A DNA stretch of 64,000 bases from an uncultured Planctomycetia bacterium (GCA_964421015.1 CAYQUS010000002.1:8538-72537), one strand, 5' to 3'. Shown: positions 976-55,450, counted from the first letter of the stretch. Numbers and translations are program-made. The notes: generated by a model not told the origin, from the sequence alone.

Positions 976-2196
976 TCACTGTCTAATTTTCGGCTCAATA
1001 AGTTTTCTCCAGACATCTTTACCGGAATAACTTACGCTTACAAAGGAAAAGTCCCTGTTCTCAAGACCCTTCTGCCTGAGAGTAAGAGTTCCCCTCATTT
1101 CTCCGCTATCGGAAACTTCCCCGTACCAGGAAGCCATATCTTCTCCCCTTTTCATCTTTGCCGTGTACACCACTTCTCCTGTATCGTTAACCAGAAGCGA
1201 ATACTCTACCGGGAAAAATCCCCTAAAAACAAGATTATCCGATGAAAAAACCCCGTCGTAGAACTCTATGGTATCCATCTGCACTTTTCCCCCGGTCACC
1301 GGCACCATCCTTATCTGCCACTCGGAACCCTCAAGCCTTTTCATTATGTTCTGCAGCTGCTCGGGCAGGCTGTATTCCACAAAAGCGGGGTTTTTGGGAG
1401 CCTCTTCTCTTGTTCCGGGAGAGAAGATCCTGAAAACCGCATAAACCAGGATCAACCCGGCCACAAAAACAGCTATTTTTACCGGATTTTTCCGTTTCCC
1501 GGGCGCTTTTGGGTCTTTTTCTTCATCCCTCGGAGCCCCGGAAACCTCTTCCATTTCCTTTTTGACCATGTCTTCAAAACCTTTGGATCCGAGCATTCCC
1601 CTTTTCTGTAGCCTCTTGTGCAGGTTCAGGTTCCCGGCAGAGAGCAGTTCTCCGGCAGCCTGTGTGTAACCTTTTCCCGCCAGCAGGTTTTCCACCTCTT
1701 CTTTTTCCTTCTGCATGAGCCCATTGGAGAAATCTAGCCCCCCGGAATACATGGTACAGCTTGTGTAGGGGTATTCCGTGGGACTTGTGACAATCTTGAT
1801 TCTTTTAGGGTTCTGATGGGTATAAACTATCGCGGGGAAAAGATACCCCTCCTTTTCAACAAGGGCGGATCTGTATCTCTGCTTGAAAAGATGCCCTGTC
1901 CTTGAGTGAACACGATTGAAATATTTGGTGTACGATGAGTTTATGTCTCTCATTACTTCCGAAATGGCGGGTGTAGTTTCTTTTTCCTGTCCCGGAAGTT
2001 CAACCAAAAGGTGGAAATGATCCGGAAGCAGCGCATACGCGTACATCCGGAATTTGTACTGCTCTTTGTATTTCGCAAGAATACCCATAAAACTCCTGTG
2101 ATCCTCTTCCGTCACAAATATTCGTCCCCGCTGATTACCCTCGCAGGTTACGTAGTACAGAGCCCCTTCGATCTGTACACGCGGAAGTCTTGGCAT
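976..2196 (-). CDS. IS200/IS605-like Y1 (HuH) transposase, RAYT-like domain, fused to a TM helix and an extracytoplasmic W..E/ASW.G domain (paralog 2)
   Basis: Track ORF 976..2286. I place the start at Met31 (2196, MPRLPRVQIEG...) because an AAGGAAA SD lies 6 nt upstream and a terminator U-tract abuts the 2286 ATG. The N-terminal domain carries the HuH motif (YALLPDHFHLLV), then ...GHLFKQRYRSALVEKEGYLFPAIVYTHQNP, typical of PF01797 RAYT-like proteins. A single TM segment (KIAVFVAGLILVYAVFRIF) precedes a C-terminal domain homologous to the two neighbouring secreted proteins. Confidence 0.6.
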   Translation of the reverse strand: MPRLPRVQIEGALYYVTCEGNQRGRIFVTEEDHRSFMGILAKYKEQYKFRMYAYALLPDHFHLLVELPGQEKETTPAISEVMRDINSSYTKYFNRVHSRTGHLFKQRYRSALVEKEGYLFPAIVYTHQNPKRIKIVTSPTEYPYTSCTMYSGGLDFSNGLMQKEKEEVENLLAGKGYTQAAGELLSAGNLNLHKRLQKRGMLGSKGFEDMVKKEMEEVSGAPRDEEKDPKAPGKRKNPVKIAVFVAGLILVYAVFRIFSPGTREEAPKNPAFVEYSLPEQLQNIMKRLEGSEWQIRMVPVTGGKVQMDTIEFYDGVFSSDNLVFRGFFPVEYSLLVNDTGEVVYTAKMKRGEDMASWYGEVSDSGEMRGTLTLRQKGLENRDFSFVSVSYSGKDVWRKLIEPKIRQ

Positions 2197-2286
2197 CTTA
2201 GTTTCCTTTTCGTTAAATTTCTGCCTTTTTTTGCCATTAATGCCTGGCACTTTTCTTTGGTGCCTGGCACTTTTTGCTTTGGACAT

Positions 2287-2315
2287 AAAAAAAACCCAGG
2301 CTACTTACTCCTGGG
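2287..2315 (-). terminator. Rho-independent terminator (hairpin CCCAGG-loop-CCTGGG followed by a U8 tract on the minus strand)
   Basis: Plus strand reads aaaaaaaa cccagg ctacttactc cctggg. On the minus strand this is a GC stem followed by TTTTTTTT, immediately before the transposase-fusion gene. Confidence 0.5.
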
Positions 2316-2635
2316 CTTAATAAAAATCATCGAGTCCTTCGGTAACCTGCCGATCCTTTACTCTATTTCAAGGACGCACGGTTTTGCGCACCCGCCAATG
2401 CGGGATTGCCTTTTTCGGAACTTCGCGCAGTATTTTTCTACTTTAAGTATGCCACATAGGGTGGCGCTTTTCAAGTGAACCAAAGTAAAGCTGGCTTTCC
2501 CCAAGCCTATACCCTCCTCTCTTGGCTCTAAAACCCTTAAAAACAAAGAACTTTTAAAAAAATCCATTTTTTTTGAAAAAAATTTAAGGGAATAAAAAAT
2601 TTAAGAAAATTGTGTTCTCACAGATACATAGAAAA

Positions 2636-3170
2636 GCGAAGGTTCAGGTTGAGGTCAAGGTGCCTGGCAGTGAGACTGGTGTTTCATAGATTTGGCTATA
2701 GGTAAACTTAAGTACGCGAGACAGTATTTTTAAAATCCTGTCTCGCGGCCAAATCGATGAAACACCATAGTCGAACTGTCCCCGAGATAGTGAAGCTGCG
2801 GTTTCATGAGCAAAGAGAAATGAAACCGCACAGCTGAACTGCAGCGAAGGGGCACCAACGTGTCTTGGAGTAAAGGAGAAAGTAGTAAGGAGAAAAATAT
2901 CAGATCAAGGTTGAGGTTCAGGTTTAGGTTGAATTTGCCGGCAGATGCCGATGTTCCCGGAAGGGCGTTGGTCGACCGAGCGGGCACGGATCCCGAGGGC
3001 AGTGAGGCTGGTGTTTCATGATGGAATGAAACACCATGGCCGAACTGTCCCGAGGGAGAGCGAGGGAGAGCATCGAGCGAGATTTCCACGCCGGGGAAAT
3101 CGAGCGTCCCTGAAGGGAATATTGGCATCTGCCGGCAGATGCCGATGTTCCCGGAAGGGCGTTGACAGGC
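2636..3170. repeat. mosaic of nested palindromes and direct repeats (BIME-like cluster)
   Basis: Contains the perfect 10-bp stem ggtgtttcat/atgaaacacc (~3010-3040), a second copy split by a 75 nt insert (~2672-2770), and the hairpin tgcggtttcat/atgaaaccgca (~2795-2835). A 33 nt direct repeat, ccggcagatgccgatgttcccggaagggcgttg, occurs at 2938-2970 and again at 3132-3164. Long-arm REP motifs aggttcaggttgaggtcaaggtg occur at 2640 and 2906. Confidence 0.6.
3076..3135. repeat. repeat family B (gatttccacgccggggaaatcgagcgtccctgaagggaat)
   Basis: A near-identical copy occurs in inverse orientation at 12030..12100. Both contain the palindrome tccctgaaggga. The track ORFs over these copies are repeat-derived. 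Confidence 0.55.
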
Positions 3171-3177
3171 CGAGGGT

Positions 3178-3335
3178 ACGCGCAAGACCGCGGAGAGAGT
3201 GTGTTCGAGACTGGAATAATTCGCCGCCCGAAAGGGATAAAAATAAGGACACCCCCCTGAAGAGTCTGCTCCTGAAATATTAAATTAACAGGCGGATTAT
3301 GAAGAGCGCAGAATACACTCTCTTCGCGGAGAGCG
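3178..3335 (+). repeat. conserved ~150 nt element, copy 1, closed by a ~16-18 bp terminal stem; candidate structured RNA or MITE
   Basis: About 93% identical to copy 2 at 4546..4695. The 5' end cgcggagagagtgtg pairs with the 3' end cacactctcttcgcg. Confidence 0.5.
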
Positions 3336-3432
3336 GGTATCAAGATGCAAAATAAAAGCGGGAACACGCATCAAATTTACGCGTCCCCGCTTTTCTCTCA
3401 ACCTCAACCTTCTATTTTCCTCTTGCTCCTTA

Positions 3433-3485
3433 AAACCACATTGGTGACAGGCACTTCAACTCGGGGAAATACACTCCGTGCCAGT
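3433..3485. repeat. REP-like palindromic unit (ggtgacaggcac-loop-gtgccagtcacctcaacc)
   Basis: The same unit recurs at 6398..6450, 6456..6520 and, inverted, at 13281..13338. Confidence 0.6.
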
Positions 3486-3561
3486 CACCTCAACCTTTTT
3501 CTTACTCCTTACTCCTTACTACTTGCTACTTTCTACTTCCCTTCCCCTTCCCTCTTATTCC

Positions 3562-4263
3562 TTACATCCAGCTTCTCTTTGCCTTCTTTTCCGGTTTTTC
3601 AGCCTTGACCGGAACAACTTCAACAGCCTCTTCCTCAATAAGCTCCTCTCCGGAGGGGGTCTCGACAACTTCCTCTACGACCTCTTCCACTACAAGAGCT
3701 TCTCCGGCAGGGGTCTCAACAACCGCGGCCTCTTCTACTACAACTTCTTCCACTACCGCGCCTTTGCCTCTGCTCGCGAAGGTGTAGTTTTTAACTGTGC
3801 CCGCTTTGTCGTTCTTGTGTATGCTTAATACCCCGGTCATCGTTTCACTAAGGACGCCCGTTTCGGGATCTCTTCTCATGTCGCCTCTCCAGAAAGCCTG
3901 CTGGCCGTCTTCTGTGACCTGCATGGTCTCCCATGTAGCGCTGTTCTCTCTCCTTATCCTCAAGGTCAGGTTCGACGCCCCAAAACCCTGCTCCATCAGC
4001 ATCGCCGATTCCACCCTGCCCATATTCGTGAACTTTATAGTGTCGTCCACAACCTCTTTTTTGGCGTTATCCGTGCTTTCTGTTAGGGTTATTTCCCAGA
4101 GCGTGTCATTTATCTGCTTTTTGGCCGCTTCCACCATGAGAGCCCTCTTAACCGCCTCCTCCTCCGTTTCCTGAGCCATTAAGATGCTGGCCGAAAAACA
4201 AAACAAGGCCGAAGCCATTACAACTTTCACTACCTTCATCGCTTCTCTAGAGAACATGTCCAT
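3562..4263 (-). CDS. secreted protein, stand-alone copy of the W..E/ASW.G domain family (paralog 3) with an acidic tandem-repeat C-terminal tail
   Basis: Signal peptide MKVVKVVMASALFCFSASILMA (the start may be Met9 at ~4239). The domain NDTLWEITLTES...AFWRGDMRRDPETGVLSETMTGVLSI is homologous to the other two family members. The C-terminus is a low-complexity VVEEVVEEVVETP(A/S)GE repeat, encoded by a ~60 nt tandem repeat at ~3600-3760. Confidence 0.6.
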   Translation of the reverse strand: MDMFSREAMKVVKVVMASALFCFSASILMAQETEEEAVKRALMVEAAKKQINDTLWEITLTESTDNAKKEVVDDTIKFTNMGRVESAMLMEQGFGASNLTLRIRRENSATWETMQVTEDGQQAFWRGDMRRDPETGVLSETMTGVLSIHKNDKAGTVKNYTFASRGKGAVVEEVVVEEAAVVETPAGEALVVEEVVEEVVETPSGEELIEEEAVEVVPVKAEKPEKKAKRSWM

Positions 4264-4545
4264 ACCCCCTTTTTTATGATAAATCCCTTTTAAAAACCTT
4301 CCCTATTTACCTAAGTTCCTTTATTTTAGGTATTAATTATCCCATATTTTAAACTGTTTTGCAACAATGCCAGGTTATTGCGCTAATACGCTCCACCTTC
4401 CCGCACGATACCCTATCCGCGCCTCACTCAACCTTAACCCTTACTCCTTCCCTCTTTCTTCCTGCTCCACCCATATTCGACATATCCCGCTCGGAAAAAG
4501 TTCCATAAAAACACATTGGTGCCCCCTCAGCACATCGGTCTTGGA

Positions 4546-4695
4546 AAACCGCGGGGAGAGTGTGTCGAGACTGGAATAATTCGCCGCCCGAAAGGGATAA
4601 AATTAAGGACACTCCCCTGAAGAGTCTGCTCCTGAAGTATTACATTAACAGGCGGATTGTGAAGAGCGCAGAATACACTCTCTCCGCGGAAAGCG
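4546..4695 (+). repeat. conserved ~150 nt element, copy 2
   Basis: See copy 1. The terminal stem is cgcggggagagtgtg/cacactctctccgcg. Relative to copy 1 there is an a-to-g change on the 5' arm and a t-to-c change on the 3' arm. This is a compensatory A-U to G-C pair change. Confidence 0.5.
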
Positions 4696-4782
4696 ACCGT
4701 TCTAGATTCTTCGCCTTCGGCTCAGAATGACAATATTTATTCCTTCCGAACTTCCTACTTTACGCCTCTCTACGCTCTCAAT

Positions 4783-6375
4783 CTATTCCGCGACTACCGC
4801 CGCTTCAACTATCAGCACATCTTCCTTGGGCTTGTCGGAACTATCTGTCTCTACGATACTTATAGCATTAACAACGTCCATACCCCATATAACTTTTCCG
4901 AAAACGGTGTGCCTTCCGTAAAGATGTTTGGCCGGAGCTACGGTTATGAAAAACTGGCTTTTATTGGAATCCGGTCCGGAATTCGCCATGGCGAGTACCC
5001 CGGGTTCGTCGAAATTCAGACCTTCCTTTATTTCATCCACAAAAGGGCTCTCCCCCCAGAAAGATTCTCCCCCCGCTCCGGTGCCGCTGGGATCTCCCGC
5101 CTGAACCATAAAATCCTTTATTACTCTATGGAACTTTATGCCGTTATAGTATCCCTTCTCCACAAGACCGATAAAATTCTCGGCGGCCAGAGGCGCCGAT
5201 TCCGGGAAAAGCCTCAGAGCTACGTCCCCTTTAGAGGTTTTAAGGACTATAAGCGACTTTTTCTTCATACTTTCCACCTTTTCCTGCTGTCTCTTTTCCT
5301 CGACATAATCACGGAAACTGGCTCTAGAGAGAAGGTCATCGAAATATTCCTTAACGATTTTCTGTTTTTTGCCTCTTGTGAGCATTTCGCGGTAATATTC
5401 TTTTTTCTGGTCGTCATACTGCGCCATGTCGGCCCGGCGCGTATTAAGAAGCCTGACAACAACGGGGCCGTAATAGTTGTGGGCCGCCATAAAGGTTCCT
5501 GGTTCGCTCTCGACTATAGTGTACGCCTCGTCTTTTGGTATTTTCCACAGGTCGATAAGGGCCTCGAGCGTCATGCTGTTTATCCACGAAGCCCCTTTCT
5601 GCCCCAGGTCTTTCTTCGCCTCATAAGTGTCCCACCAGAGGCGCGGGTTATCACGCACTTTATCCTGAAACTCCCTCGCGGCCTCGTCAGTCGCAAAAAG
5701 TATGTACTCGCTCTCGAAAGAATTGTACTGGTTGAGGAATTTCTGCAGCATCTCGTCTTCCGTGACTACGACCTCGGGATTGGCCTTTATGCTGAGGAAC
5801 TTATTGACCGTAAGAAGGTCCTTTATCCGCCCCTCAAAAACTTCCGCGCTTTCGTTGAAAGTTTTCGGCACCCATTCCTTGTACTCGGCTGAACCGTACT
5901 CCAACCCCTGTTCTTTAACAAGCCTCTTAAGCTCCGTCTCCAGTTCTTCGCGGGTTATCTCTATTCCTATAGCCTTGGCCTCTATCCCGTATATAAGGTT
6001 CTGCCATGCCTCTATTCTTCTGGCATCCTCTCTGAGCTGCTCATTAAGCCCCTCCACTTCTTTTGCCATTCTTGTGAACATCGAAGCAGTTTTATACTGG
6101 TAAAGAAATTCCTGCGGTGTGACCGGGCGGTGAAAAACCTCTCCCACGGCCCCGGGCATCATGGGGCCCGGCGTTACCTTGGCCTCATCTTTAGGTTCGT
6201 CTGATCCCTCCTCGGCGGAACTTGTTTTTTCCTGGGCCTTTGATGCCTCTGCCGATTTTTGTTCGGCGGTAACTTCCTTAGTTTCCTGGGATACCTTAGA
6301 AGCCTCACGGGCGCATCCGTACGGCGCGCATGTTATCATCATTACGGCCAAGAGATATCCTAAAAATTTTTTCAT
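4783..6375 (-). CDS. periplasmic peptidyl-prolyl cis-trans isomerase, cyclophilin type, with an N-terminal SurA/PpiD-like chaperone region
   Basis: The C-terminal ~170 aa is a cyclophilin domain (FHRVIKDFMVQAGDP...GESFWG...QFFIT...HTVFGKV). The N-terminus has a signal or lipoprotein peptide. Confidence 0.8.
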   Translation of the reverse strand: MKKFLGYLLAVMMITCAPYGCAREASKVSQETKEVTAEQKSAEASKAQEKTSSAEEGSDEPKDEAKVTPGPMMPGAVGEVFHRPVTPQEFLYQYKTASMFTRMAKEVEGLNEQLREDARRIEAWQNLIYGIEAKAIGIEITREELETELKRLVKEQGLEYGSAEYKEWVPKTFNESAEVFEGRIKDLLTVNKFLSIKANPEVVVTEDEMLQKFLNQYNSFESEYILFATDEAAREFQDKVRDNPRLWWDTYEAKKDLGQKGASWINSMTLEALIDLWKIPKDEAYTIVESEPGTFMAAHNYYGPVVVRLLNTRRADMAQYDDQKKEYYREMLTRGKKQKIVKEYFDDLLSRASFRDYVEEKRQQEKVESMKKKSLIVLKTSKGDVALRLFPESAPLAAENFIGLVEKGYYNGIKFHRVIKDFMVQAGDPSGTGAGGESFWGESPFVDEIKEGLNFDEPGVLAMANSGPDSNKSQFFITVAPAKHLYGRHTVFGKVIWGMDVVNAISIVETDSSDKPKEDVLIVEAAVVAE

Positions 6376-6397
6376 TTCACCCTCCTAAAGACACATT

Positions 6398-6520
6398 GGT
6401 GACAGGCACTTCAATTCGGGAAATACGATCTGTGCCAGTCACCTAAACCTGCATCGATGACAGGCACTTCAACTCGGGAAATACGATCTGTGCCAGTCAC
6501 CTCGACCTTAACCTGAACCT
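6398..6520. repeat. two tandem REP-like palindromic units
   Basis: gacaggcacttcaaytcgggaaatacgatctgtgccagtcacct occurs twice. The second copy continues into the long arm cacctcgaccttaacctgaacct. Confidence 0.6.
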
Positions 6521-6534
6521 GCGGTCTTGCTACC

Positions 6535-12029: not shown

Positions 12030-12100
12030 GGCATTCCATCATTTCCTTCAGGGACGCTCGATTTGCCCAGCGTGGAAATCTTCACTCGGTGCTCTCCCTC
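12030..12100. repeat. repeat family B copy, inverse orientation
   Basis: The reverse complement matches 3076..3135 (gatttccacgc.gggcaaatcgagcgtccctgaagg.aat). Confidence 0.55.
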
Positions 12101-12169
12101 GCTTTATCACGCGGCTGGCGTACGCCTTGACTCCGAGCTTCGGGGCATGGTACACTTCCGTGAAAGGCG

Positions 12170-12730: not shown

Positions 12731-12829
12731 CAAGCCGGCATTAAACCCCTGATTGACTTAGCCATTCACGGTTGTTATAATGTGTGGGGTTTTATCCGGG
12801 ATTTTACAGAAAAACCGGCAATCAGGACC

Positions 12830-12906
12830 GGGAAGTAGCGCAGCCTGGCTAGCGCACCTGCTTTGGGAGCAGGGAGTCGTGGGTTCGAATCCCACCTTCC
12901 CGACCA
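12830..12906 (+). tRNA. tRNA-Pro (anticodon TGG)
   Basis: Cloverleaf folded by hand. Anticodon loop cttTGGga. CCA encoded. Confidence 0.8.
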
Positions 12907-12969
12907 GTTTTTATTTATCCGCCAAGTTACTCGAGTTTTTTGCTTGTTTTTTTGTTTGCTTGCGTTTCA

Positions 12970-13053
12970 GCGGGCGTGGCGGAATTGGCAGACGCGCTAG
13001 CCTTAGGAGCTAGTGGTTTTACCGTGGGGGTTCGAGTCCCTTCGCCCGCACCA
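12970..13053 (+). tRNA. tRNA-Leu (anticodon TAG), long variable arm
   Basis: Acceptor stem gcgggcg/cgcccgc. Anticodon loop ctTAGga. CCA encoded. Confidence 0.8.
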
Positions 13054-13155
13054 TTTTTTGCCCGGGCTCTTTTCCGGGTTGAAATGCGCTGTGTTTTATG
13101 TTTTACTGTTTTTGTTTTTAGGGTTTTTGGGTAAGATCGTGTTCTTTAAAAAGTT

Positions 13156-13232
13156 GCGCCCGTAGCTCACTTGGATAGAGCATCTGCCTTCTAAGCAGAG
13201 GGTAGCAGGTTCGAATCCTGCCGGGCGCGCCA
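13156..13232 (+). tRNA. tRNA-Arg (anticodon TCT)
   Basis: Acceptor stem gcgcccg/cgggcgc. Anticodon loop ctTCTaa. CCA encoded. Confidence 0.8.
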
Positions 13233-13280
13233 TGATCTGAATTTCGCTATCGCGAAATTCACCCGAAGGACCGATTGTTC

Positions 13281-13338
13281 GAGGTCGAGGTGACTGGCAA
13301 CACCATCGCTTTTTAATTGTAAGGTGGTGCCTGTCACC
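13281..13338. repeat. REP-like palindromic unit, inverted copy, between tRNA-Arg and tRNA-His
   Basis: gaggtcgaggtgactggca-loop-ggtggtgcctgtcacc. Confidence 0.55.
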
Positions 13339-13369
13339 AAAGTGTCTGTATCTGTAGATGTACATCGGT

Positions 13370-13446
13370 GGTGGGCGTAGCTCAGCTGGTAGAGCGCCTG
13401 ACTGTGGCTCAGGTTGCCGCGGGTTCAAATCCCGTCGCTCACCCCA
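13370..13446 (+). tRNA. tRNA-His (anticodon GTG) with an encoded G-1
   Basis: Anticodon loop ctGTGgc. An extra 5' G pairs with the discriminator C. CCA encoded. Confidence 0.75.
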
Positions 13447-14977: not shown

Positions 14978-17900
14978 ATGACTGTACATTTCCTCTGCCG
15001 ATCAGCGCGCGCAAGTTTTAACCGCTTGAAAAAAGCTGTTTCACTATCATTGGCTTTTTGCCTGCTTTGTCCCGGCCTTTCTCTGGGGAAAGACCAATAT
15101 CCCGTTCCAAGCTCAGATCGCGCTGTCCATGATACCGCAAACTTGTCCGCGGCAAACACTATAGAAATTCCTTACGGACTCGGTTTTATAACCGACAGAT
15201 GGGACGGCGGAGCTGATCCCTCGGGATATACAGTGATCCACATACAGGATGCTCACTGTAATTACGACGCGCAAAAGGCTGTAGCCGGAATAATATCGTA
15301 CCTAAGCAAGCGTTACGGCGCATATGTCGTTAATCTGGAGGGAGGCGAGGGTCCTTATGATACGTCCCTTTTCTCTCACCTTGGTTCCGGAGACCTCGCT
15401 CAAAAAGCCGCCGACATCTTGCTTGAAAAGGGGCTTTTGAACGGCGCCGAGTACGCCGCTGTGTCAGAAGGCGGAGTTTTCCTCTGGGGGATCGAAGACC
15501 CCTTTCTTTACTCAAAAAACCTTTCGGCGTACAGGGAATCGGTTTCGGCAAAAGAAGAATCCGGCAGACTGCTTAGCGTGTTAAATGACGAGGTTTCCAA
15601 AGCCCAAAAAAGTGTTTTTTCGGAAAAACTTCTTGAGATCGAAAAATTCAAGGTCGGTTATCGCTCGGGGACCCTGGAACTAAAGGACTATTTCACCTAT
15701 CTCTGGTCTTTAGCCGAAGTTTCCGGCATAGACGTGTCTCTGTATCCCCTTTCTCAAAAAATGGCCGGAATACTGGAAAAGGAACGCGGTATAGATTTCG
15801 AAAAAGCCGGAACGGAGAGAACAATGCTTGTGGAGCTTCTTGGAGAACATCTCCCCGGGGAAGATGTTCTATCCATAGCCCAGGCGGCTGAAAATTTTCG
15901 TCTCGGGAAGATCTCCGAAGCGTCTTTCCATGGATATCTTTACGCCAGGTCAGCCATACTGGGAGAGAGATTTGAAGATTTCCGGGAACTCTCAAAATAC
16001 ATCTCTTATTCCGCGGACCACGGCGCTATCGACGACACATTTCTCACGGAAGAACTCCCGTCCCTTGAAAACTCTATTCTGGACCTTTTCGCGAGCACGC
16101 CTGAGGAGAAAGAACTTTTATTCTTTGCGCGGCTTCTTGAAACAGCGGGCAGAATACTTTCTTTTACCGTAACCGAAAAAGATTTCAATTTTTACAGAAC
16201 CCACTCTTCCCGCTTACAGGACCTGGGCAGTTTTGTGGAAAACTTTATTCCCTGCGGCTCCACGTCAGAGGGGGCTGGAAGCGCGGCCCGCGATCTTTCC
16301 GGGTACACGGCAAAAGCGGCCTTGTTCTATGAATACTCCTTACTTCGCGACGAAGCCTTTCTTGGGAATATGATATCGTCCCCCCTGTCACGGACGGCCG
16401 TTCTTGTTACCGGAGGGTTCCACACAAAAAACCTTGCCCGCGTCTTCCGGGAAAAAGGTATAGCATACGTAACGGTAATGCCTTCTTTCAGGAACGCGGA
16501 GGGATACGCCTCTCCGTATTTCAGCGTTCTGGAAGGCAGCAACGGCTTTTTCCCCATATCCGCAGCTCCCGGAGCCTATTCGCTGCAGGTGCCGAGCGCT
16601 CTGGCGCCGATAAAAGATGCCCTGACAGAGGCTGATCTGGAAGAATACGAAGTCAACGCCTATGTAACCGGGGAAATAGCGCGCGGAAAAAAACTGATAA
16701 TATCCATGGACGGCGGTAAGACCTTGGAAATAGGCTCGGGAACAACTGAACGTCTCTCGCTGGACGAACTTCTTCACAGGGTCCACGAGGTGTACATAGA
16801 CCGCATAATGGCCCGGGGCGATTTTACGGAAGTTTCGGACGAAGACCGCGACGACGCCTGCGGCATCGCCCTTGAGGTCACACAAGACCATTCTATCCAA
16901 CGCCAGATAATAGATCTTCACCGCGGCGAAAATGCCGAAGGCAAGAAGCTGCACATGCAGTTCTCCTCGGGGCTCGGCAGAACCAAAATACTGGAACACT
17001 CAGGAGGCATGGGAGTATCCATAAGCTCCGGGCTTTACACAATAGAAGAAGTGCGCCGGGCTCTGGTGCATGGTATTATCTCGGGATTCCTTGACGACCA
17101 CCGCATGGCGGACCTTATAACCGAAGCTCTTCTTAAAGACGACATTTCCCTCGCCTCTCGGATGTTTTCCTCGGCCATGAAAGGCAAACCGGCTATAGCC
17201 GTGTGGGAGAGATCCGACCTTGTCCGTCGGTCCGGAAAACGAGACTATGCCGACAGGCTCAGCGATCTTCAGGCTCTTATGAGTTCCCACAGCCTTATTC
17301 GCACGGAAAAAGGCACCTGGTATGAGTCTCAGGGACTCCGCTTTTACCGGGGCCTGTGGCAGAAAAACCATCAGATAGCCCAGGGCATAAAAGTCCACAT
17401 AGACGCTACTGACGACACGGGGAAAATAGATATCGATCTTCTTTCCGGCGCGGTGTCGCTTCTTGAAAAATGGGGGTTCCCTTTCAAAATATCCGAACCT
17501 TTCGGCCAAAAGCTGGTCCGGACACACGAAGACTCCTCTTCTTACGACCAGGAAGGCAAGACGGTTGTGATCTGGCTTGTCGACATCGAGGGGGCCCCAT
17601 TGAAGGATTGGAACAAGATAGAAGATTTCCTATCTTCGCTGGAGTCATATCTGTCAAAAAGCCCGAAAACAAAAACACATTTTTCGCATGACGGCACAAC
17701 CAACGATCAGCTTTACGGCGACTCCGGGAGGCTTGGATACCGTTTCGGGTCTTACAACTCCGGGGTTGTCATAGTGCCCTCAGAAAAAGGCCTGGAGCAG
17801 ATACGCCCGGACGACCATCACAAACACGACAGCGAACTTATCCGACATACCGGCCTCTACGGCAGCGTTCCCGAGGAACCTTTCGAGGTGCAAGCCGCTA

Positions 17901-20900
17901 AAAAAATGTCGCTCACTCCCGTTAAAAAAGAAACAAATGTAGTGGCCTTTTTAAACAGGATAATAAGACTGGCCGGACAGAAAACGACCATAACGGACAA
18001 CACTAATTTCCGCACCGCCATAAGAGGACGCTCGGACCAGATCTTCGGGATAAAGCTCGAAAGCGACTCCAAGAAAGACGATATTCCCTTACACGGAAAC
18101 TGGCTTGCGGGAATGAACTTCTCGCGGCTGGAAACCTACGATCCCGAAAGCCCATCGGACTGGGTCATAAAGTTCGGTCAGTTCGCCGATGGAACTTCGG
18201 CAATAGCAAGCTGGCTCAAAGAGTGGAAAATAAACTCTCTCGGCATGAAGGAGCTGTGCGCCCATGACCCTGTCAGTTTCCTCTCTTCTATAGGTCACGA
18301 GGACCAGGCCAAAAAACTGGAAAAGGCCTGGCTCGAGGGAGACCATGGAACAGTGAACAATATCATCAATACGTTTTTCTGCGTAAAGGATAAAGGCCTT
18401 TTTACGGCAGCCCCCATGGTGAAAGGCGGGTTCACCCTCAATAAGATCCTGCATGTTCTCTATCCCGAGATCCACGCCGGGCCGGATGTTAAGACCCCGG
18501 AAGAAGCCGAACGTTTTCAGGCGGAATGCGCCGAGATAAAGCGCCAGCTTGACGCGCTGTTCGCCCGAAAAACACCCGACCAGAGAAAAGAAATACTTTC
18601 GTCCTGGGCTCAGAGAATACATTCCATAGCCGGCAAACTTCACCGGAACGGCATAGTCCACCGGGACCTTAAACCCGATAACATCCTTATAAACATAGAA
18701 AAACAGGACATACGGATAATAGATTTTGAGACCGCGATATTCACCGAAAAAAGAGGAGAAAATATAATCATCCCGGAAGTAAAAAAAGCCGCGACTCCCG
18801 GATACGCGCATTTTTATCAGTTCAATGAGGACATCTACACGGCACTTAGAAGCGTCGGGGAAAAAGCGCTCTGGGCATACCTGAAAGCTCAGGACGTATT
18901 CGCCCTCGAAGTCATATCGGACGAGCTGGTCAACGGAGACACTCCTTTTGACGCGGCGGAATGGGAGACTTTTTCGTCTAAAGGGATGGCCCATCGGATG
19001 ATAAAGAACGGGCATGACCTTATCCTGGCCAGGAACATGGTAGACCTAGCCAGAGCGCATCAGACAGGTAATTATGAAAAACTGCTCGCCCAAAAAAGAA
19101 AAGAATACCAGTCTTTTTCCACCGGACCGCTTCTGGGAGCATACGAGGAAGCCTCCCGCCTTAAATATGACCTTCAGGCCCTTAGAAAAAAAGTGGAACT
19201 CTCCAATTCGCTGAAAAATCAGGCCGAGGAAAAAGAATACTCTTCCTGGGACGCTCTTGAGACTTTGCGGGAGGAGCTTTCCGCCGTAAGCGCGAGGGAA
19301 AAGTTCCTTTCCGAGAAGATAAACCAGCTTGAAATACGCAAAAGGTCTGGCTCCGATCTTTCTTCTTTGCGCGCGGAATTTTCCGAGATCAGGCATAAAA
19401 GAAGTGTTATCGCCTCGAGGGCTCAGGCCGCCGAGGAAAAATACTTCGCGTCTAAAGAAGAGGCCGATGCCGCCCGGAAAAACTCGCAGGCCGCCCGGCT
19501 GGAGTACGATGTTCTTGCCGGGAAATATGCTTCCTCCCAGTCTTTGCTGAGCCAGATGGAGAGGAGAAAGAACAACCTGGAACGCTTTCTTTCTCTGGTA
19601 GAATGGCTGTCGGAAGAAAAACCCGAAATGACCTCTCCTCTCTTGCCCGACGGGAACATCTCTCTTCTCGGCGGGGGGATCTCGTGGGTAGGCGGGGATA
19701 ATTTTACGGGGGGAACGCCGATGGTTAGTTCTCAGGACCTTGACCCTGTGTTCATCGGCGCGGAAAAAACGCTGTCCCTTTTAAGCAAAAGGGATGACGG
19801 GCTCCCTGAACTTCCCGTCGGCATCAGCTCTGAAGGAAAAGTTTTCCAGACTCTGGATTTTATTGACCTTGAGGGAAAACGGATAAACATAAGGCCGCTT
19901 AACGGATCTGTCCTGGCTTCGATTTCGGAAGACGGCAAAACCGCGGCCGTGAACTGGAACCTCATAAACGTCTTGCTCGCCCTTGCCGAGACCCCGGATT
20001 CCCCTGAAAAGATAACGGGAATGAAAAAGATCCTTTCAGACGCTCTTCTCCCCGCCGATATAGGAGAAAAGATCTATTCCGATTTTTCGAAAGTTTCGGG
20101 TCTTTCCTCAGCCGAAAAATACATGATAGCCGGCCGCGTTCTTCTTCATGAGATAACGGAAGCTTACCTCATACAATCCCAGCTGGAAGACGCTCAAGGT
20201 GCGGCTGAAAACCCCGTCGACAGGTCCAGGGCGCATTTCTCGGCCATGGTCGCGGAACTTTACGCGGGAAATACTTTAAAAATAAGGTCTGTCCTGGGGC
20301 CCATCCTGGCTTCGCGCGACCTTAACGAGGCCCGCGGGGTGATCTCATCGCGCGTATCCTCCGGGAAAAAGGATTTTCCGGCCGCGTCCCGGGAAGATTT
20401 TAAAGAAACTGCCGAAAAAATTTCCGGGAAATGTTATCAGGACCTCTTTTTCGGGAAAAACTCTTACATCTTCGTTTTGGGAGCCGAGCCATCCGTCTCT
20501 GAGGGTACTCTTCAGGAGGCTATGTCTCTAGGGCCATCAGTTTCTTCGTCCGCCGGCGCGGCGCGAAGTTTCGCGGCAAAGCAGAATTTCGGAAAGGTCT
20601 CCATATCCCATCATACCGGTAAAGACCAGGCGCTATCCGCCCTTGTTTCCATGGCCTCTCTCCCGGCCGGAAAAAACCGCGTGCATTGCTCTATAAGCCG
20701 GACCCTGCTTTCGGAGATGGACGCTGATCCCTCCGTACTCGCGGCGATTAACGCCTCTTCCGGAGCTAAAACATATTCCTCTGTTTCGGGATTTCTCTCT
20801 TCTTCCGCCATAACCGACATCATAGACGACAGGATTGAGCCGCACGGCGGAGACACGGCCAAAGTACTGCCCATGCCTTACAATGAGGCTTCTCTCCATG

Positions 20901-21199
20901 GCATAGCCCGTCTTAACCTTTCGCATCTGCTTTCCGAATTCCGCGACGAGGACCTTGACGCCGCGAACCCCGATTTCATGAGGGCGGTGAACATGGTGGC
21001 GCTTACAGTCGCCCTCATGTCCGGGAGAAATGACGTGGATTCCATAGCTTTTTCCCTTCTCTCTCTGGCCGGGAATAATCCCAGGGAATTCTTTGTGAGC
21101 GGGAACCTCAGCATTTTCCTCCCGCCCGCGGTTCCGAGGAATCACGAAGAAATACGGGAGGATTATCTTTCAAAGGCAGCTTTGCTCCGATATCTGTAA
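14978..21199 (+). CDS. giant (2073 aa) predicted secreted multidomain protein with an embedded eukaryotic-like Ser/Thr protein kinase domain and coiled-coil regions
   Basis: One uninterrupted 6.2 kb ORF. Signal-peptide-like N-terminus. Kinase catalytic loop HRDLKPDNIL (~18655-18690), then IIDFETAIF (DFG-like, reads DFE), ATPGYAHF (resembles the APE motif) and DVFALEVISDELVNGDTPF (subdomain IX-like). Long heptad and charged coiled-coil stretches lie downstream. Confidence 0.75.
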   Translation: MTVHFLCRSARASFNRLKKAVSLSLAFCLLCPGLSLGKDQYPVPSSDRAVHDTANLSAANTIEIPYGLGFITDRWDGGADPSGYTVIHIQDAHCNYDAQKAVAGIISYLSKRYGAYVVNLEGGEGPYDTSLFSHLGSGDLAQKAADILLEKGLLNGAEYAAVSEGGVFLWGIEDPFLYSKNLSAYRESVSAKEESGRLLSVLNDEVSKAQKSVFSEKLLEIEKFKVGYRSGTLELKDYFTYLWSLAEVSGIDVSLYPLSQKMAGILEKERGIDFEKAGTERTMLVELLGEHLPGEDVLSIAQAAENFRLGKISEASFHGYLYARSAILGERFEDFRELSKYISYSADHGAIDDTFLTEELPSLENSILDLFASTPEEKELLFFARLLETAGRILSFTVTEKDFNFYRTHSSRLQDLGSFVENFIPCGSTSEGAGSAARDLSGYTAKAALFYEYSLLRDEAFLGNMISSPLSRTAVLVTGGFHTKNLARVFREKGIAYVTVMPSFRNAEGYASPYFSVLEGSNGFFPISAAPGAYSLQVPSALAPIKDALTEADLEEYEVNAYVTGEIARGKKLIISMDGGKTLEIGSGTTERLSLDELLHRVHEVYIDRIMARGDFTEVSDEDRDDACGIALEVTQDHSIQRQIIDLHRGENAEGKKLHMQFSSGLGRTKILEHSGGMGVSISSGLYTIEEVRRALVHGIISGFLDDHRMADLITEALLKDDISLASRMFSSAMKGKPAIAVWERSDLVRRSGKRDYADRLSDLQALMSSHSLIRTEKGTWYESQGLRFYRGLWQKNHQIAQGIKVHIDATDDTGKIDIDLLSGAVSLLEKWGFPFKISEPFGQKLVRTHEDSSSYDQEGKTVVIWLVDIEGAPLKDWNKIEDFLSSLESYLSKSPKTKTHFSHDGTTNDQLYGDSGRLGYRFGSYNSGVVIVPSEKGLEQIRPDDHHKHDSELIRHTGLYGSVPEEPFEVQAAKKMSLTPVKKETNVVAFLNRIIRLAGQKTTITDNTNFRTAIRGRSDQIFGIKLESDSKKDDIPLHGNWLAGMNFSRLETYDPESPSDWVIKFGQFADGTSAIASWLKEWKINSLGMKELCAHDPVSFLSSIGHEDQAKKLEKAWLEGDHGTVNNIINTFFCVKDKGLFTAAPMVKGGFTLNKILHVLYPEIHAGPDVKTPEEAERFQAECAEIKRQLDALFARKTPDQRKEILSSWAQRIHSIAGKLHRNGIVHRDLKPDNILINIEKQDIRIIDFETAIFTEKRGENIIIPEVKKAATPGYAHFYQFNEDIYTALRSVGEKALWAYLKAQDVFALEVISDELVNGDTPFDAAEWETFSSKGMAHRMIKNGHDLILARNMVDLARAHQTGNYEKLLAQKRKEYQSFSTGPLLGAYEEASRLKYDLQALRKKVELSNSLKNQAEEKEYSSWDALETLREELSAVSAREKFLSEKINQLEIRKRSGSDLSSLRAEFSEIRHKRSVIASRAQAAEEKYFASKEEADAARKNSQAARLEYDVLAGKYASSQSLLSQMERRKNNLERFLSLVEWLSEEKPEMTSPLLPDGNISLLGGGISWVGGDNFTGGTPMVSSQDLDPVFIGAEKTLSLLSKRDDGLPELPVGISSEGKVFQTLDFIDLEGKRINIRPLNGSVLASISEDGKTAAVNWNLINVLLALAETPDSPEKITGMKKILSDALLPADIGEKIYSDFSKVSGLSSAEKYMIAGRVLLHEITEAYLIQSQLEDAQGAAENPVDRSRAHFSAMVAELYAGNTLKIRSVLGPILASRDLNEARGVISSRVSSGKKDFPAASREDFKETAEKISGKCYQDLFFGKNSYIFVLGAEPSVSEGTLQEAMSLGPSVSSSAGAARSFAAKQNFGKVSISHHTGKDQALSALVSMASLPAGKNRVHCSISRTLLSEMDADPSVLAAINASSGAKTYSSVSGFLSSSAITDIIDDRIEPHGGDTAKVLPMPYNEASLHGIARLNLSHLLSEFRDEDLDAANPDFMRAVNMVALTVALMSGRNDVDSIAFSLLSLAGNNPREFFVSGNLSIFLPPAVPRNHEEIREDYLSKAALLRYL

Positions 21200-26678: not shown

Positions 26679-27045
26679 TGTTCTCCGGGATGAATTCTCT
26701 TATTTTCGCCAATAATTCCGCATATTGGAAAGGCTTAAGGATAAAACCATCGTGGGAACATCCCTCAAAATCCTTTTTCCTTATGCCGGCGCTTGCCGTA
26801 AGAAGGATTATGGGGATATTTCTGAAATTTTGGTCGCCTTTAAGCTCTCCGCATACCTCAAACCCGTCCTTCCCGGGGAGCCTCAGGTCCAGCAGTATAA
26901 TATCGGGCCTTTGTTTCTTGGCCATTTCAACGCCTTCCTCGCCGTCGTCCGCCGTAAAAACCTCGTAACCGGCTTTTTCGAGTATGAACTTTACGGATTT
27001 AAGTATATCCGGCTCGTCGTCCACGATAAGTATTCTTTTAGGCAC
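26662..27045 (-). CDS. response regulator, receiver domain only (CheY-like)
   Basis: ILIVDDEPDILKS...DIILLDLRLPGKDGFEV...PIILLTA. Confidence 0.85.
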   Translation of the reverse strand: MPKRILIVDDEPDILKSVKFILEKAGYEVFTADDGEEGVEMAKKQRPDIILLDLRLPGKDGFEVCGELKGDQNFRNIPIILLTASAGIRKKDFEGCSHDGFILKPFQYAELLAKIREFIPENNEPGA

Positions 27046-30359: not shown

Positions 30360-30740
30360 CTAGCCCCTCTTTTGGGTAACGGTTTCTATCTTGTTTATAA
30401 GAAGCCCCAGGTCGAATGGTTTTATGAAATACGCGTCGGCGCCGGTTTCGAAAGCTTTTTCCCTGTCTTTCTGGCGGTCCAGCGCCGAAAGGACTATTAT
30501 GGGGATATCTTTGTATCTCTCGTCGAATTTAAGCATCCGGCAGACCTCGAACCCGCTGATCTTCGGCATCATGAGGTCCAGTATGATAACGTCGGGCGGG
30601 GATTTTTTCACTATATCCATCGTCTCTTCTCCGTCTCTCGCCTGCATGACGCTGTACCCCGCTACCTCAAGGCGCATAGAGAGTATTTTCCTGATATCGT
30701 CATTGTCCTCGCTTAAAAGAACTTTTATATTCCCGCTCAT
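30360..30740 (-). CDS. response regulator, receiver domain only
   Basis: KVLLSEDNDDIRK...DVIILDLMMPKISGFEV...PIIVLSA...ADAYFIKPF. Confidence 0.85.
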   Translation of the reverse strand: MSGNIKVLLSEDNDDIRKILSMRLEVAGYSVMQARDGEETMDIVKKSPPDVIILDLMMPKISGFEVCRMLKFDERYKDIPIIVLSALDRQKDREKAFETGADAYFIKPFDLGLLINKIETVTQKRG

Positions 30741-55211: not shown

Positions 55212-55241
55212 AAAAACAGGGGCCGGAACGAGTCCGGCCCC
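55212..55241 (-). terminator. Rho-independent terminator downstream of pheT
   Basis: On the minus strand: ggggccgga-ctcgt-tccggcccc followed by tgttttt. Confidence 0.55.
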
Positions 55242-55450
55242 CGGACCATCGTGCCGTCCGCAAGAAAGAGAATTTTAGACCTGGTAATCCAGGTGGGTGC
55301 CCTCCCGCATGCCTCGAAAGGCGAGCGAAGTTAGGCTCCCGGGTCGTAAGTGTTGGTCAAATTCTCTGTTCCAGGTCACGCGCACAACAGAGCATTAATG
55401 ACTGTGTTATCTATCTTCCGGACAAAATACCGTCCCGGATAGACCGTTCT

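Follow-up and report, generated by a model that had tools for sequence, protein, structure and literature searches.

The window analysed here, a whole stretch of 64,000 nucleotides (nt) from an uncultured Planctomycetia bacterium (GCA_964421015.1 CAYQUS010000002.1:8538-72537, numbered from its first letter), carries a gene whose product contains a domain of the RAYT type (tyrosine transposases associated with repetitive extragenic palindromes, REPs) and, upstream of it, a region crowded with repeats that an earlier note on this DNA had described as gene-free. The interval 2196-3560 is best read as two different units lying end to end, namely the leader of the RAYT-fusion gene (2196-2475, minus strand) and a pile-up of repeats (2500-3560). 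Its repeats and hairpins are genuine and well above chance expectation, and the region is non-coding, part of it with a clear function. Repeat finders and self-BLAST were run on the window, and positions 1800-4900 and the other sites cited below were read directly. In the self-BLAST, all repeats of the 64 kb involve either this interval or a REP doublet at 6384-6520 whose family has a copy in the interval, with the exception of a pair of tRNA genes and of two weak similarities located at 25-31 kb. Folding z-scores of the mosaic range from -7 to -15, against -2.4 to +2 for five other intergenic and two coding stretches of the window. The arm of the REP hairpin, allowing at most one mismatch, has eight matches in the window (0.13 expected) and the hexamer motif of its tail has ten (0.37 expected).

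The RAYT-fusion gene and its 5' leader

The RAYT-fusion gene (976-2196, minus strand) encodes an N-terminal Y1/HUH RAYT domain followed by a linker, a membrane helix, and a C-terminal beta-barrel domain of about 110 amino acids (aa). Residues 1-145 correspond to the Y1/HUH domain (Pfam Y1_Tnp, E 1.6e-9) and reach 80.1 bits with the NCBIfam model REP_Tyr_transpos, just at its cut-off of 80, while scoring 17 bits with the IS200 model, the cut-off of which is 55. The protein has HFH and Y-T-H-Q-N-P motifs, and the HUH and Y-x-H-x-N-P signatures are kept across 34 family members. The sole sequence match of the RAYT domain in the PDB, which is also its best fold match, is Escherichia coli TnpA_REP (4ER8, TM 0.70). 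Judged by sequence and fold, the gene adjoining the repeat cluster carries a true RAYT-type domain, closer to TnpA_REP than to the IS200 TnpA. About 60 full-length relatives of the fusion were found, and all the named ones belong to Candidatus Omnitrophota, the phylum to which we also assign the window gene. A single RAYT copy is present within the 64 kb, and synteny with cyclophilin and barrel-domain genes is found in several Omnitrophota loci. The neighbouring genes encode a secretin, an ExeA-like ATPase, a TPR protein, and a cyclophilin fusion.

Upstream of this gene, a 5' leader of about 280 nt (2196-2475, minus strand) contains a promoter, a riboswitch aptamer, a terminator, two palindromic boxes, a ribosome-binding site, and the MPRLPR start of the protein. 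A consensus scan places a putative sigma-70-type promoter, TTGAAA-17-(TG)CATACT, at 2446-2474 (minus strand), and the closest relative (locus L039; L numbers designate loci of other metagenomes) has TTGCAA-17-CATACT, with equal spacing and the same -10 hexamer. Within the transcript lies an aptamer of the c-di-GMP-I (GEMM-I) class of riboswitches, which bind cyclic diguanylate (2338-2420, minus strand; Rfam RF01051, 43.5 bits against a gathering score of 35), followed by a hairpin, GCCCAGG-loop-CCUGGGU, with a U8 tail (2287-2316, minus strand). The latter had been interpreted as the terminator closing a gene, with empty DNA behind it. This was mistaken, since the U8 tail is on the minus strand, upstream of a minus-strand gene, and the DNA at 2338-2475 holds the aptamer and the promoter. 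Located 21 nt after the aptamer and with its U8 on the same strand, the hairpin is an intrinsic terminator that serves as the riboswitch expression platform. The riboswitch is the sole Rfam match of the interval at E<=1 on both strands. The supposedly gene-free repeat region thus concealed a riboswitch, a lesson for annotation that extends to the gene start itself: the deposited NCBI product has 424 aa and begins 18 codons 5' of the conserved MPRLPR start, within leader box 2, so that this start was probably mis-called inside the leader.

Conservation of the c-di-GMP riboswitch

The leader recurs in related genomes. RNAalifold, applied to eight leaders (the window aptamer and seven orthologous ones, a small set of sequences related to one another), predicts 22 pairs, 8 of which show compensatory double changes, and this covariation backs the two-hairpin fold in which P1a and P1b are closed by P1. 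A covariance model that we built from the same eight leaders scores the window aptamer at 68.8 bits and detects the aptamer in 27 metagenome loci, always on the strand of the gene (27/27) and, except in L065, immediately 5' of a RAYT-like gene. With Rfam, the aptamer is above threshold in 10 of the 17 full-length orthologous loci, at 45-63 bits. In the leaders that were read, the order of aptamer, terminator, one or two boxes and start codon is constant, and a hairpin plus U-run follows the aptamer in all 13 orthologous ones. Aligned to the Rfam consensus, the window sequence has the nucleotides corresponding to the ligand contacts of the Vc2 riboswitch in AAAGGCAA..., GCGCAAAACC, and GUUACCGAA, at positions that we take to be Vc2 G20, A47, and C92. 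Our literature searches turned up no c-di-GMP riboswitch preceding a RAYT gene, and this leader of riboswitch, terminator and hairpin, attached to a conserved RAYT fusion, is the most solid new result of the analysis.

In 9 of 13 leaders, the segment at the 3' end of the aptamer could base-pair with the terminator, namely with its loop and 3' half, through a complementary pair of sequences that varies with the lineage (CAGGUUAC/GUAGCCUG in the window, GGCAGAC/GUCUGCC in L048 and L051). Such antiterminator complementarity suggests an OFF switch. Without c-di-GMP, the aptamer 3' segment CAGGUUAC would pair with the terminator loop and 3' half GUAGCCUG and allow read-through; with c-di-GMP bound, this segment would be held in the aptamer, leaving the terminator free to form and turning the operon off.

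Several orthologous aptamers possess extra small hairpins of 40-110 nt between the two aptamer helices (e.g. GCCACAAUAAGUGGC and CGCCAAGAAAUAUGGCG). These are found in L040/L046 (5612-5812), L054 (2148-2263), L055 (4738-4853), L058 (266-399), L062 (approximately 4700-4864), L092 (3873-3995), and L116 (1243-1370). Their Rfam scores are lower or fail, our own model still detects them, and they may represent a structural variant of the c-di-GMP-I class. Another orthologue of the RAYT fusion, in L070 (1-623), has no riboswitch and is preceded by two tandem units made of a box plus a TTGACA-17-TATAAT promoter. Nested inverted arrays of heptamer repeats lie 5' of these promoter units, a second case of repeat arrays upstream of a member of the RAYT-fusion family.

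Leader boxes and a related family of REP hairpins

Between the terminator and the start codon, the window leader has two AAAGTGCCAGGCA copies, direct repeats of a palindromic box, (A)AAGTGCC-A-GGCA(C), placed 9 nt apart (2240-2273, minus strand) and able to pair with each other by 5+5 bp around an A.A mismatch. The 11-mer box GTGCCAGGCAC is almost restricted to the stretch just 5' of RAYT-like genes, in 22 loci. In most loci 9-10 of the 10 inter-box pairs can form around the A.A centre, and in the variants of L040, L047, and L077 the pairing between boxes is kept thanks to sense-strand G.U wobbles even where the symmetry of each individual box is broken.

The REP-like units that the earlier note had seen recurring along the window are indeed there (3431-3497, 6386-6450, 6444-6520, and, inverted, 13276-13345). 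Their hairpin, GGTGAC-A-GGCAC / GTGCC-A-GTCACC followed by (TNRACC)n, has a 12-bp stem with a central A.A mismatch and occurs at 3443-3489, 6398-6443, 6456-6501, and 13289-13338 (minus strand). All four copies are extragenic and each is followed by the (TNRACC)n tail. The first belongs to a composite unit at the right end of the pile-up (see below). The next two form a doublet with hexamer tail (6384-6520, plus strand) between the gene of a 173-aa protein and that of the cyclophilin fusion; its REPs (6384-6499) are repeated in direct tandem with a period of 58 nt, not as the inverted pair of a REPIN. The fourth (13276-13345, minus strand), with a different loop, is in the spacer between the tRNA-Arg and tRNA-His genes. 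All four thus reside in transcribed spacers (a 3' untranslated region ahead of the terminator 3394-3354, the gap between two cistrons, and the spacer of the tRNA genes) and have identical orientation relative to transcription. Their 5' flank is conserved (ACACATTGGTG, (A)CACATTGGTG, and ACACATTGG) and has no GTAG tetranucleotide; another guide sequence is possible.

These REPs have the same inner stem as the leader boxes, GGCAC/GTGCC, and the same A.A mismatch in mid-stem, but another outer stem; box and REP arm are identical at 10 of 11 positions. A covariance model of the four REPs retrieves the leader box pair as the best non-REP match in the window (E 0.03) and, over 402 kb of related loci, leader box pairs only. 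Of the 12 box-family sites in the 64 kb, 11 are found no farther than 11 kb from the RAYT gene. The E. coli enzyme TnpA_REP requires a mismatch in the middle of the stem for binding (PMC3479197). Given the common inner stem and mismatch, the ranking by the model, and this requirement in E. coli, we read the REP as the probable cognate hairpin of the adjacent RAYT, which its RAYT domain would recognise and which would have multiplied in the lineage of the window only.

Exact 12-nt REP arms with the A.A mismatch and variable loops also exist as multi-copy hairpin families in other metagenome-assembled genomes (MAGs; L001-L038), for which our own estimate of chance expectation is about 2 matches in 596 Gb. 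The MAGs belong to Planctomycetota (three MAGs), Chloroflexota (17 loci in one MAG, where the arms are within a larger inverted repeat), Oxalobacteraceae, and an unclassified bacterium. No RAYT genes are found beside these cross-phylum hairpins within loci of 8 kb, and a literature search with the REP arm sequences returned only unrelated primers. A recognition stem common to several phyla would be notable. Read in the mRNA sense, the REP flank and tails contain Shine-Dalgarno-like strings (AAGGAG, GAGGTGA), and the cyclophilin-fusion gene takes its ribosome-binding site TAGGAGGGTGAAATG (6376-6400, minus strand) from the flank of the REP at 6398. A resemblance of the hexamer and polypurine tails to Shine-Dalgarno or anti-Shine-Dalgarno sequences was noted in a window that contains no 16S gene.

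Architecture of the repeat cluster

The pile-up (2500-3560) is composed of at least six families: the REP with its hexamer tail, families E, D, B, and C, and polypurine/hexamer arrays. As read from the sequence, it begins with an AT-rich spacer (2520-2640) containing a 17-nt tandem repeat (2577-2610), after which a solo variant of the REP arm or box, GCCAGGCACC, with a (TNRACC)3 tail is found on the minus strand (2632-2670), 84% identical to the REP tail at 6491-6528. Then comes hairpin family E, with arms GGCAGTGAGRCTGGTGTTTCAT / ATGAAACACCATRGYCGAACTGTCC and three copies. The nested perfect stems reported previously are present in them, at or near the positions given. Copy 1 (2666-2785) has the stem ggtgtttcat/atgaaacacc (2677-2696/2748-2767, 19 of 20 pairs) and, in its loop, a 69-nt palindrome (2688-2756) with a 16-bp inner hairpin (2715-2747) that is the stem gcgagacag/ctgtctcgc (2715-2730/2732-2747). 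Copy 2 (2998-3058) has the first of these stems again (3009-3019/3026-3036) closed by a short 6-nt loop. Copy 3 (2786-2860), the variant GCGGTTTCAT/ATGAAACCGC, contains tgcggtttcat/atgaaaccgca (2797-2807/2820-2830), differs from the other two copies by two compensatory pair changes, and is followed by a partial REP left-flank motif, ACACGTTGGTG, in minus-strand reading.

Polypurine and polypyrimidine stretches, mentioned in the earlier note, are present. A polypurine tract of AAGGAG type followed by (AGGTYR)5 hexamers (2862-2930, plus strand) is the inverted counterpart of 3487-3532, to which it is 78% complementary, and the polypyrimidine is in the composite REP unit that closes the cluster (3395-3560, plus strand). 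This unit consists of (CTCAAC)n, polypyrimidine, the flank AAAACCACATT, the REP hairpin 3443-3489, and the (TNRACC) tail, and it ends with 7-mer polypyrimidine repeats that reach the stop codon of the gene for a 233-aa protein. Just before it stands the intrinsic terminator of that gene (3354-3394, minus strand), in which three minus-strand G.U pairs would be A.C mismatches on the plus strand.

The direct repeat noticed earlier is family D. Its copy 1 (2933-2980, plus strand), which starts with the box-like TGCCGGCA, is 90% identical to copy 2 (3127-3174) with a 35-nt exact core, and a third copy is inverted (3108-3140). Copy 2 overlaps a 52-nt imperfect palindrome to which this inverted copy gives rise, centred on TGCC/GGCA (3108-3159; 3108-3174 with the whole copy, plus strand), where both wobble positions are G.T on the plus strand and the three other mismatches are non-wobble. 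Family B recurs as had been claimed, with copy 1 at 3059-3128 (plus strand) and copy 2 at 12033-12103 (minus strand), 87% identical over 71 nt. A further repeat had been overlooked: element C, a 152-nt hairpin that has terminal inverted repeats of 19 nt and encloses a CCC-GAAA-GGG hairpin, is found on the plus strand at 3184-3335 and, with 93% identity, at 4545-4695. We also considered that the 233-aa gene flanked by the two C copies could be an integron cassette and rejected the idea: Pfam searches of the neighbours revealed no integrase, and element C has, by inspection, no attC-type core sites.

The modules are chained in a fixed order, with the 3' arm of a hairpin followed by (TNRACC)n, CTTACT-type polypyrimidine, AAAGACACATTGGTG, and the next hairpin. 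The hexamers are reiterations of the final six bases of the REP arm, which suggests that the cluster grew by slippage or by repeated cut-and-join events at the foot of the hairpin.

Comparison with related loci

We compared the locus with 80 related metagenome loci and the contigs of two close relatives. Homology to the closest relative, L039 (70% aa identity), is limited to 2218-2497, and in L039 and L047 the cyclophilin gene is directly followed by the leader of the RAYT-fusion gene. The gene order of barrel-domain gene, riboswitch, and RAYT is also found in L061, L062, and L116, where the gap measures 54-165 nt against 1138 nt in the window. Both the limit of homology and these gap lengths point to the addition of about 1 kb of hairpin modules in the lineage of the window. 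We also tried, and discarded, the possibility that the mosaic derives from a duplicated and decayed copy of the leader, as 2200-2500 shows no significant similarity to the rest.

Nature of the cluster

Taken together, we consider it probable that the locus comprises a riboswitch-controlled RAYT gene beside a BIME-like (bacterial interspersed mosaic element) cluster made of its cognate hairpin and other hairpins. The REP family would be the cognate hairpin of the RAYT, spread to nearby transcribed spacers as REPs do, and the cluster would be equivalent to a BIME adjoining its RAYT gene. The REP/RAYT assignment of the earlier note, its epithet 'active' apart, stands in part. The mosaic is non-coding and palindromic, it adjoins a true RAYT-type domain, and one of its repeat families is related to the leader hairpin, but the classical hallmarks of REPs (a 5' GTAG, REPs flanking the gene on both sides, inverted REPIN doublets) are absent. 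The RAYT gene has the REP-like box pair in its 5' leader and the REP-containing mosaic upstream, with nothing downstream. A BIME combines REPs of alternating orientation with a small set of recurring linkers between them; in the single window at hand, the mosaic consists of recurrent modules in both orientations, most of which (B, C, D, and E) are not REP copies.

Several observations weigh against this interpretation. Only four dispersed REP copies are seen in 64 kb, all within 13.4 kb, although genome-wide abundance (tens to hundreds of copies) is the defining property of REPs, and about 80 related RAYT loci have no dispersed REP copies within +/-5 kb, which implies that REP clusters do not accompany this RAYT family as a rule. 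Families B, C, D, and E have no demonstrated relation to the RAYT, and the G.U wobbles of C and D, which occur on the plus strand only, are not predicted by a model of pure 'junk'. Since two copies of a palindromic box can pair automatically, the 'leader hairpin' could instead represent a pair of operators in double-stranded form. An enzyme acting on chromosomal DNA would hardly be expected to have a membrane anchor and a periplasmic-type domain. With respect to the riboswitch, the window aptamer scores below its orthologues (43.5 against 59-63 bits) and lacks their GNRA loop, and the homologous sequence of L039 (499-590) fails Rfam even at E<=1, its first hairpin being remodelled while terminator and boxes are intact; the switch may thus be decaying in the lineage of the window or in the sub-lineage of L039.

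The proposal, also made in the earlier note, of a large structured RNA finds some echo in the plus strand. According to it, the mosaic core (~2640-3350) would be a single large, structured non-coding RNA or several small RNAs, element C among them, transcribed from the plus strand and antisense to the neighbouring genes. The plus strand is rich in purines and has the better fold (z -14.8 versus -8.9 on the minus strand for 2600-3400, with the same trend in both 400-nt halves), and its GC and AT skews are positive over 2550-3300, the sign expected of a sense strand and the reverse of that of the adjoining genes on the minus strand. In the stems of families D and C, seven wobbles read G.T on the plus strand and none on the other, the three stem differences between the two C copies as well as two constant wobbles pair on the plus strand only, and family E copies differ by compensatory changes. 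However, G.T wobbles fit single-stranded DNA hairpins equally well, the mosaic has no Rfam match even at E<=1, and its pieces recur separately and in either orientation (copy 2 of B is inverted and copy 2 of C stands alone between two genes). Conservation is also lacking, because neither the closest relative nor the corresponding spacers in the three loci with the same gene order contain the sequence, and we detected no convincing plus-strand promoter, the sole terminator at the right end being stabilised on the minus strand. The plus-strand asymmetry of the two families stays unexplained and keeps plus-strand RNAs or single-stranded DNA hairpins in play, but the RNA reading, be it one large RNA or several small ones, appears rather unlikely.

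We are similarly doubtful that the cluster is unrelated to the RAYT and represents debris of miniature elements (element C, resembling a miniature inverted-repeat transposable element, MITE, together with end hairpins of IS200/IS605 type) and slippage microsatellites accumulated in a tolerant spacer, with a coincidental or convergent likeness to the boxes. The terminal inverted repeats of element C and the position of its two copies on either side of the 233-aa gene evoke mobile elements, yet no target-site duplication, one of the hallmarks of MITEs, is evident at either copy, and plasmid and viral collections gave no match. Similarly, the nested insertion in copy 1 of family E, the hexamer and heptamer arrays, which resemble slippage products, the lack of REP clusters in the other RAYT loci, and the presence of the same REP arms in unrelated phyla can all be accommodated by such a history, but the near identity of box and REP arm, down to the same mid-stem mismatch, and the concentration of box-family sites around the RAYT gene argue for a connection.

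A regulatory array seems very improbable to us. In that case the box-like palindromes would be bound, as double strands, by a dimeric regulator, for which the RAYT fusion itself and a nearby MerR-type protein are candidates. Envelope genes in divergent or tandem arrangement would be under its control, with the hairpin potential as a by-product. There are seven box-like sites in 1.3 kb (TGCCWGGCA in the leader, 2661, TGCCGGCA at 2936 and 3130, and the REP arms at 3444 and 3478), they are palindromic as is usual for operators, and in L070 the boxes adjoin the -35 element of strong promoters. Nevertheless, most leaders have them 3' of the terminator, within the transcribed 5' untranslated region and away from the promoter, and the variants of L040, L047, and L077 sacrifice the symmetry of the box and preserve the pairing between boxes. 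Families B, C, and E and the hexamer tails would be left unexplained.

Finally, a decayed protein-coding gene of which the peptide FPSGTLD(F/L)P(G/S)VEI, common to two loci, would be a once-functional domain is hardly credible: the region has open reading frames (ORFs) of 112-151 aa, but three of them have no Pfam match, the largest (151 aa) has no homologue among 5.8 billion proteins, the ORFs lie over one another on both strands and are rich in Arg, Ser, and Pro, a composition expected when GC-rich palindromes are translated, and the peptides FPSGTLDFPGVEI and FPSGTLDLPSVEI are encoded by repeats, the shared one by the 87%-identical 71-nt DNA repeat B, intergenic at both sites. On these points, the absence of credible ORFs and the repeat origin of those predicted, the earlier note was right.

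Returning to a riboswitch-controlled RAYT gene beside a BIME-like cluster, the host function of RAYTs and REPs is a long-standing question, and RAYTs look domesticated. To our knowledge, no cellular signal is known to control them. The leader described here ties a RAYT to a defined second messenger, in a family conserved across Candidatus Omnitrophota and with a c-di-GMP riboswitch plus REP-like hairpin in 27 sampled loci. It also offers parts that can be put directly to the test (a single aptamer, terminator, hairpin, and small enzyme domain) and a natural contrast, as the leader hairpin appears multiplied in the lineage of the window and not in the ~80 related loci. A more ambitious scenario is possible, although we give it limited credence: the RAYT fusion could be an HUH nuclease, domesticated and anchored in the membrane, with its synthesis gated by c-di-GMP and its recognition hairpin placed in its own mRNA leader. 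In the lineage of the window this hairpin would have escaped into neighbouring transcribed spacers, a hairpin nursery would have built up beside the gene, and the protein would act on these hairpins (as single-stranded DNA or RNA) to tune the surrounding envelope and secretion genes. If true, this would give the REP/RAYT pair a physiological role controlled by a second messenger.

Likeness to known systems

Among the closest counterparts is the REP/BIME system of E. coli and its TnpA_REP (4ER8; PMC3479197). Both have a single Y1/HUH domain, the E. coli protein being the best match in sequence and fold, and short imperfect extragenic hairpins with a conserved mid-stem mismatch in 3' untranslated regions and intercistronic spacers, assembled with linker motifs into a mosaic next to the RAYT gene. 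By contrast, the window REPs lack the 5' GTAG and have the flank ACACATTGGTG, contain a single A.A mismatch instead of a 2x2 bulge, carry hexamer and polypyrimidine tails, and are known here from 64 kb only. Moreover, the window RAYT gene has the hairpin in its 5' leader only, not on both sides, its product joins the RAYT domain to a membrane helix and a beta-barrel domain, and it is placed under a c-di-GMP riboswitch. In Pseudomonas (PMC3116915, PMC5581495), REPIN-RAYT systems likewise associate a conserved RAYT gene with a sequence-related palindromic repeat forming a lineage-specific family, but a REPIN is made of two inverted REPs that form one long hairpin, whereas the window doublet is a direct tandem. 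According to PMC5581495, RAYT genes are flanked by REPs or REPINs and the flanking 16-mers are strongly over-represented genome-wide; its passage on taxonomic distribution, which is not a complete list, does not name Omnitrophota.

The aptamer resembles the Vibrio cholerae Vc2 riboswitch (RF01051) in its two-hairpin architecture, in its core GGCAAAC...GACGCAAA...GCCGAA, with a score above the gathering threshold, and in the intrinsic terminator that follows. It differs in the gene downstream, a RAYT-type transposase homologue instead of a motility, pilus, adhesion, or signalling gene, and in the lack of the GNRA loop of its orthologues, several of which have the inter-hairpin insertions described above. 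Elements of the IS200/IS605 group also combine a Y1/HUH enzyme with imperfect hairpins nearby, which are subterminal in these transposons, and, for IS200 tnpA, with a hairpin in the 5' untranslated region of the gene of the enzyme itself. Nonetheless, the window gene is far under the IS200 model cut-off, it is not bracketed by left-end and right-end hairpins, and it is present as a single copy in the window with synteny conserved across the phylum.

Other features of the window

The C-terminal part of the RAYT fusion belongs to an uncharacterised, eight-stranded beta-barrel domain of ~110 aa with three paralogues at this locus, which are residues 280-395 of the fusion and two genes on the minus strand, 438-1016, downstream of the RAYT gene, and 3562-4263, upstream of it. 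The latter two encode separate proteins with signal peptides, the upstream one being the 233-aa secreted-type protein whose stop codon borders the repeat cluster. The domain has weak fold matches to lipoprotein-carrier (LolA-like) proteins and to the factor-H-binding-protein barrel.

Elsewhere in the window, four tRNA genes (Pro, Leu, Arg, and His) are located at 12829-13446 (plus strand), and an ORF of 2073 aa (14978-21199, plus strand) has a protein-kinase-like region (Pfam Pkinase, residues 1191-1331) as its sole recognisable part. Positions 26795-26974 and 30484-30663 are 63% identical over 180 nt, lie in two minus-strand coding regions, and are probably paralogous gene segments. A 6S RNA gene is found at 55239-55396 (minus strand), with an Rfam score of 54 bits against a threshold of 46.4.

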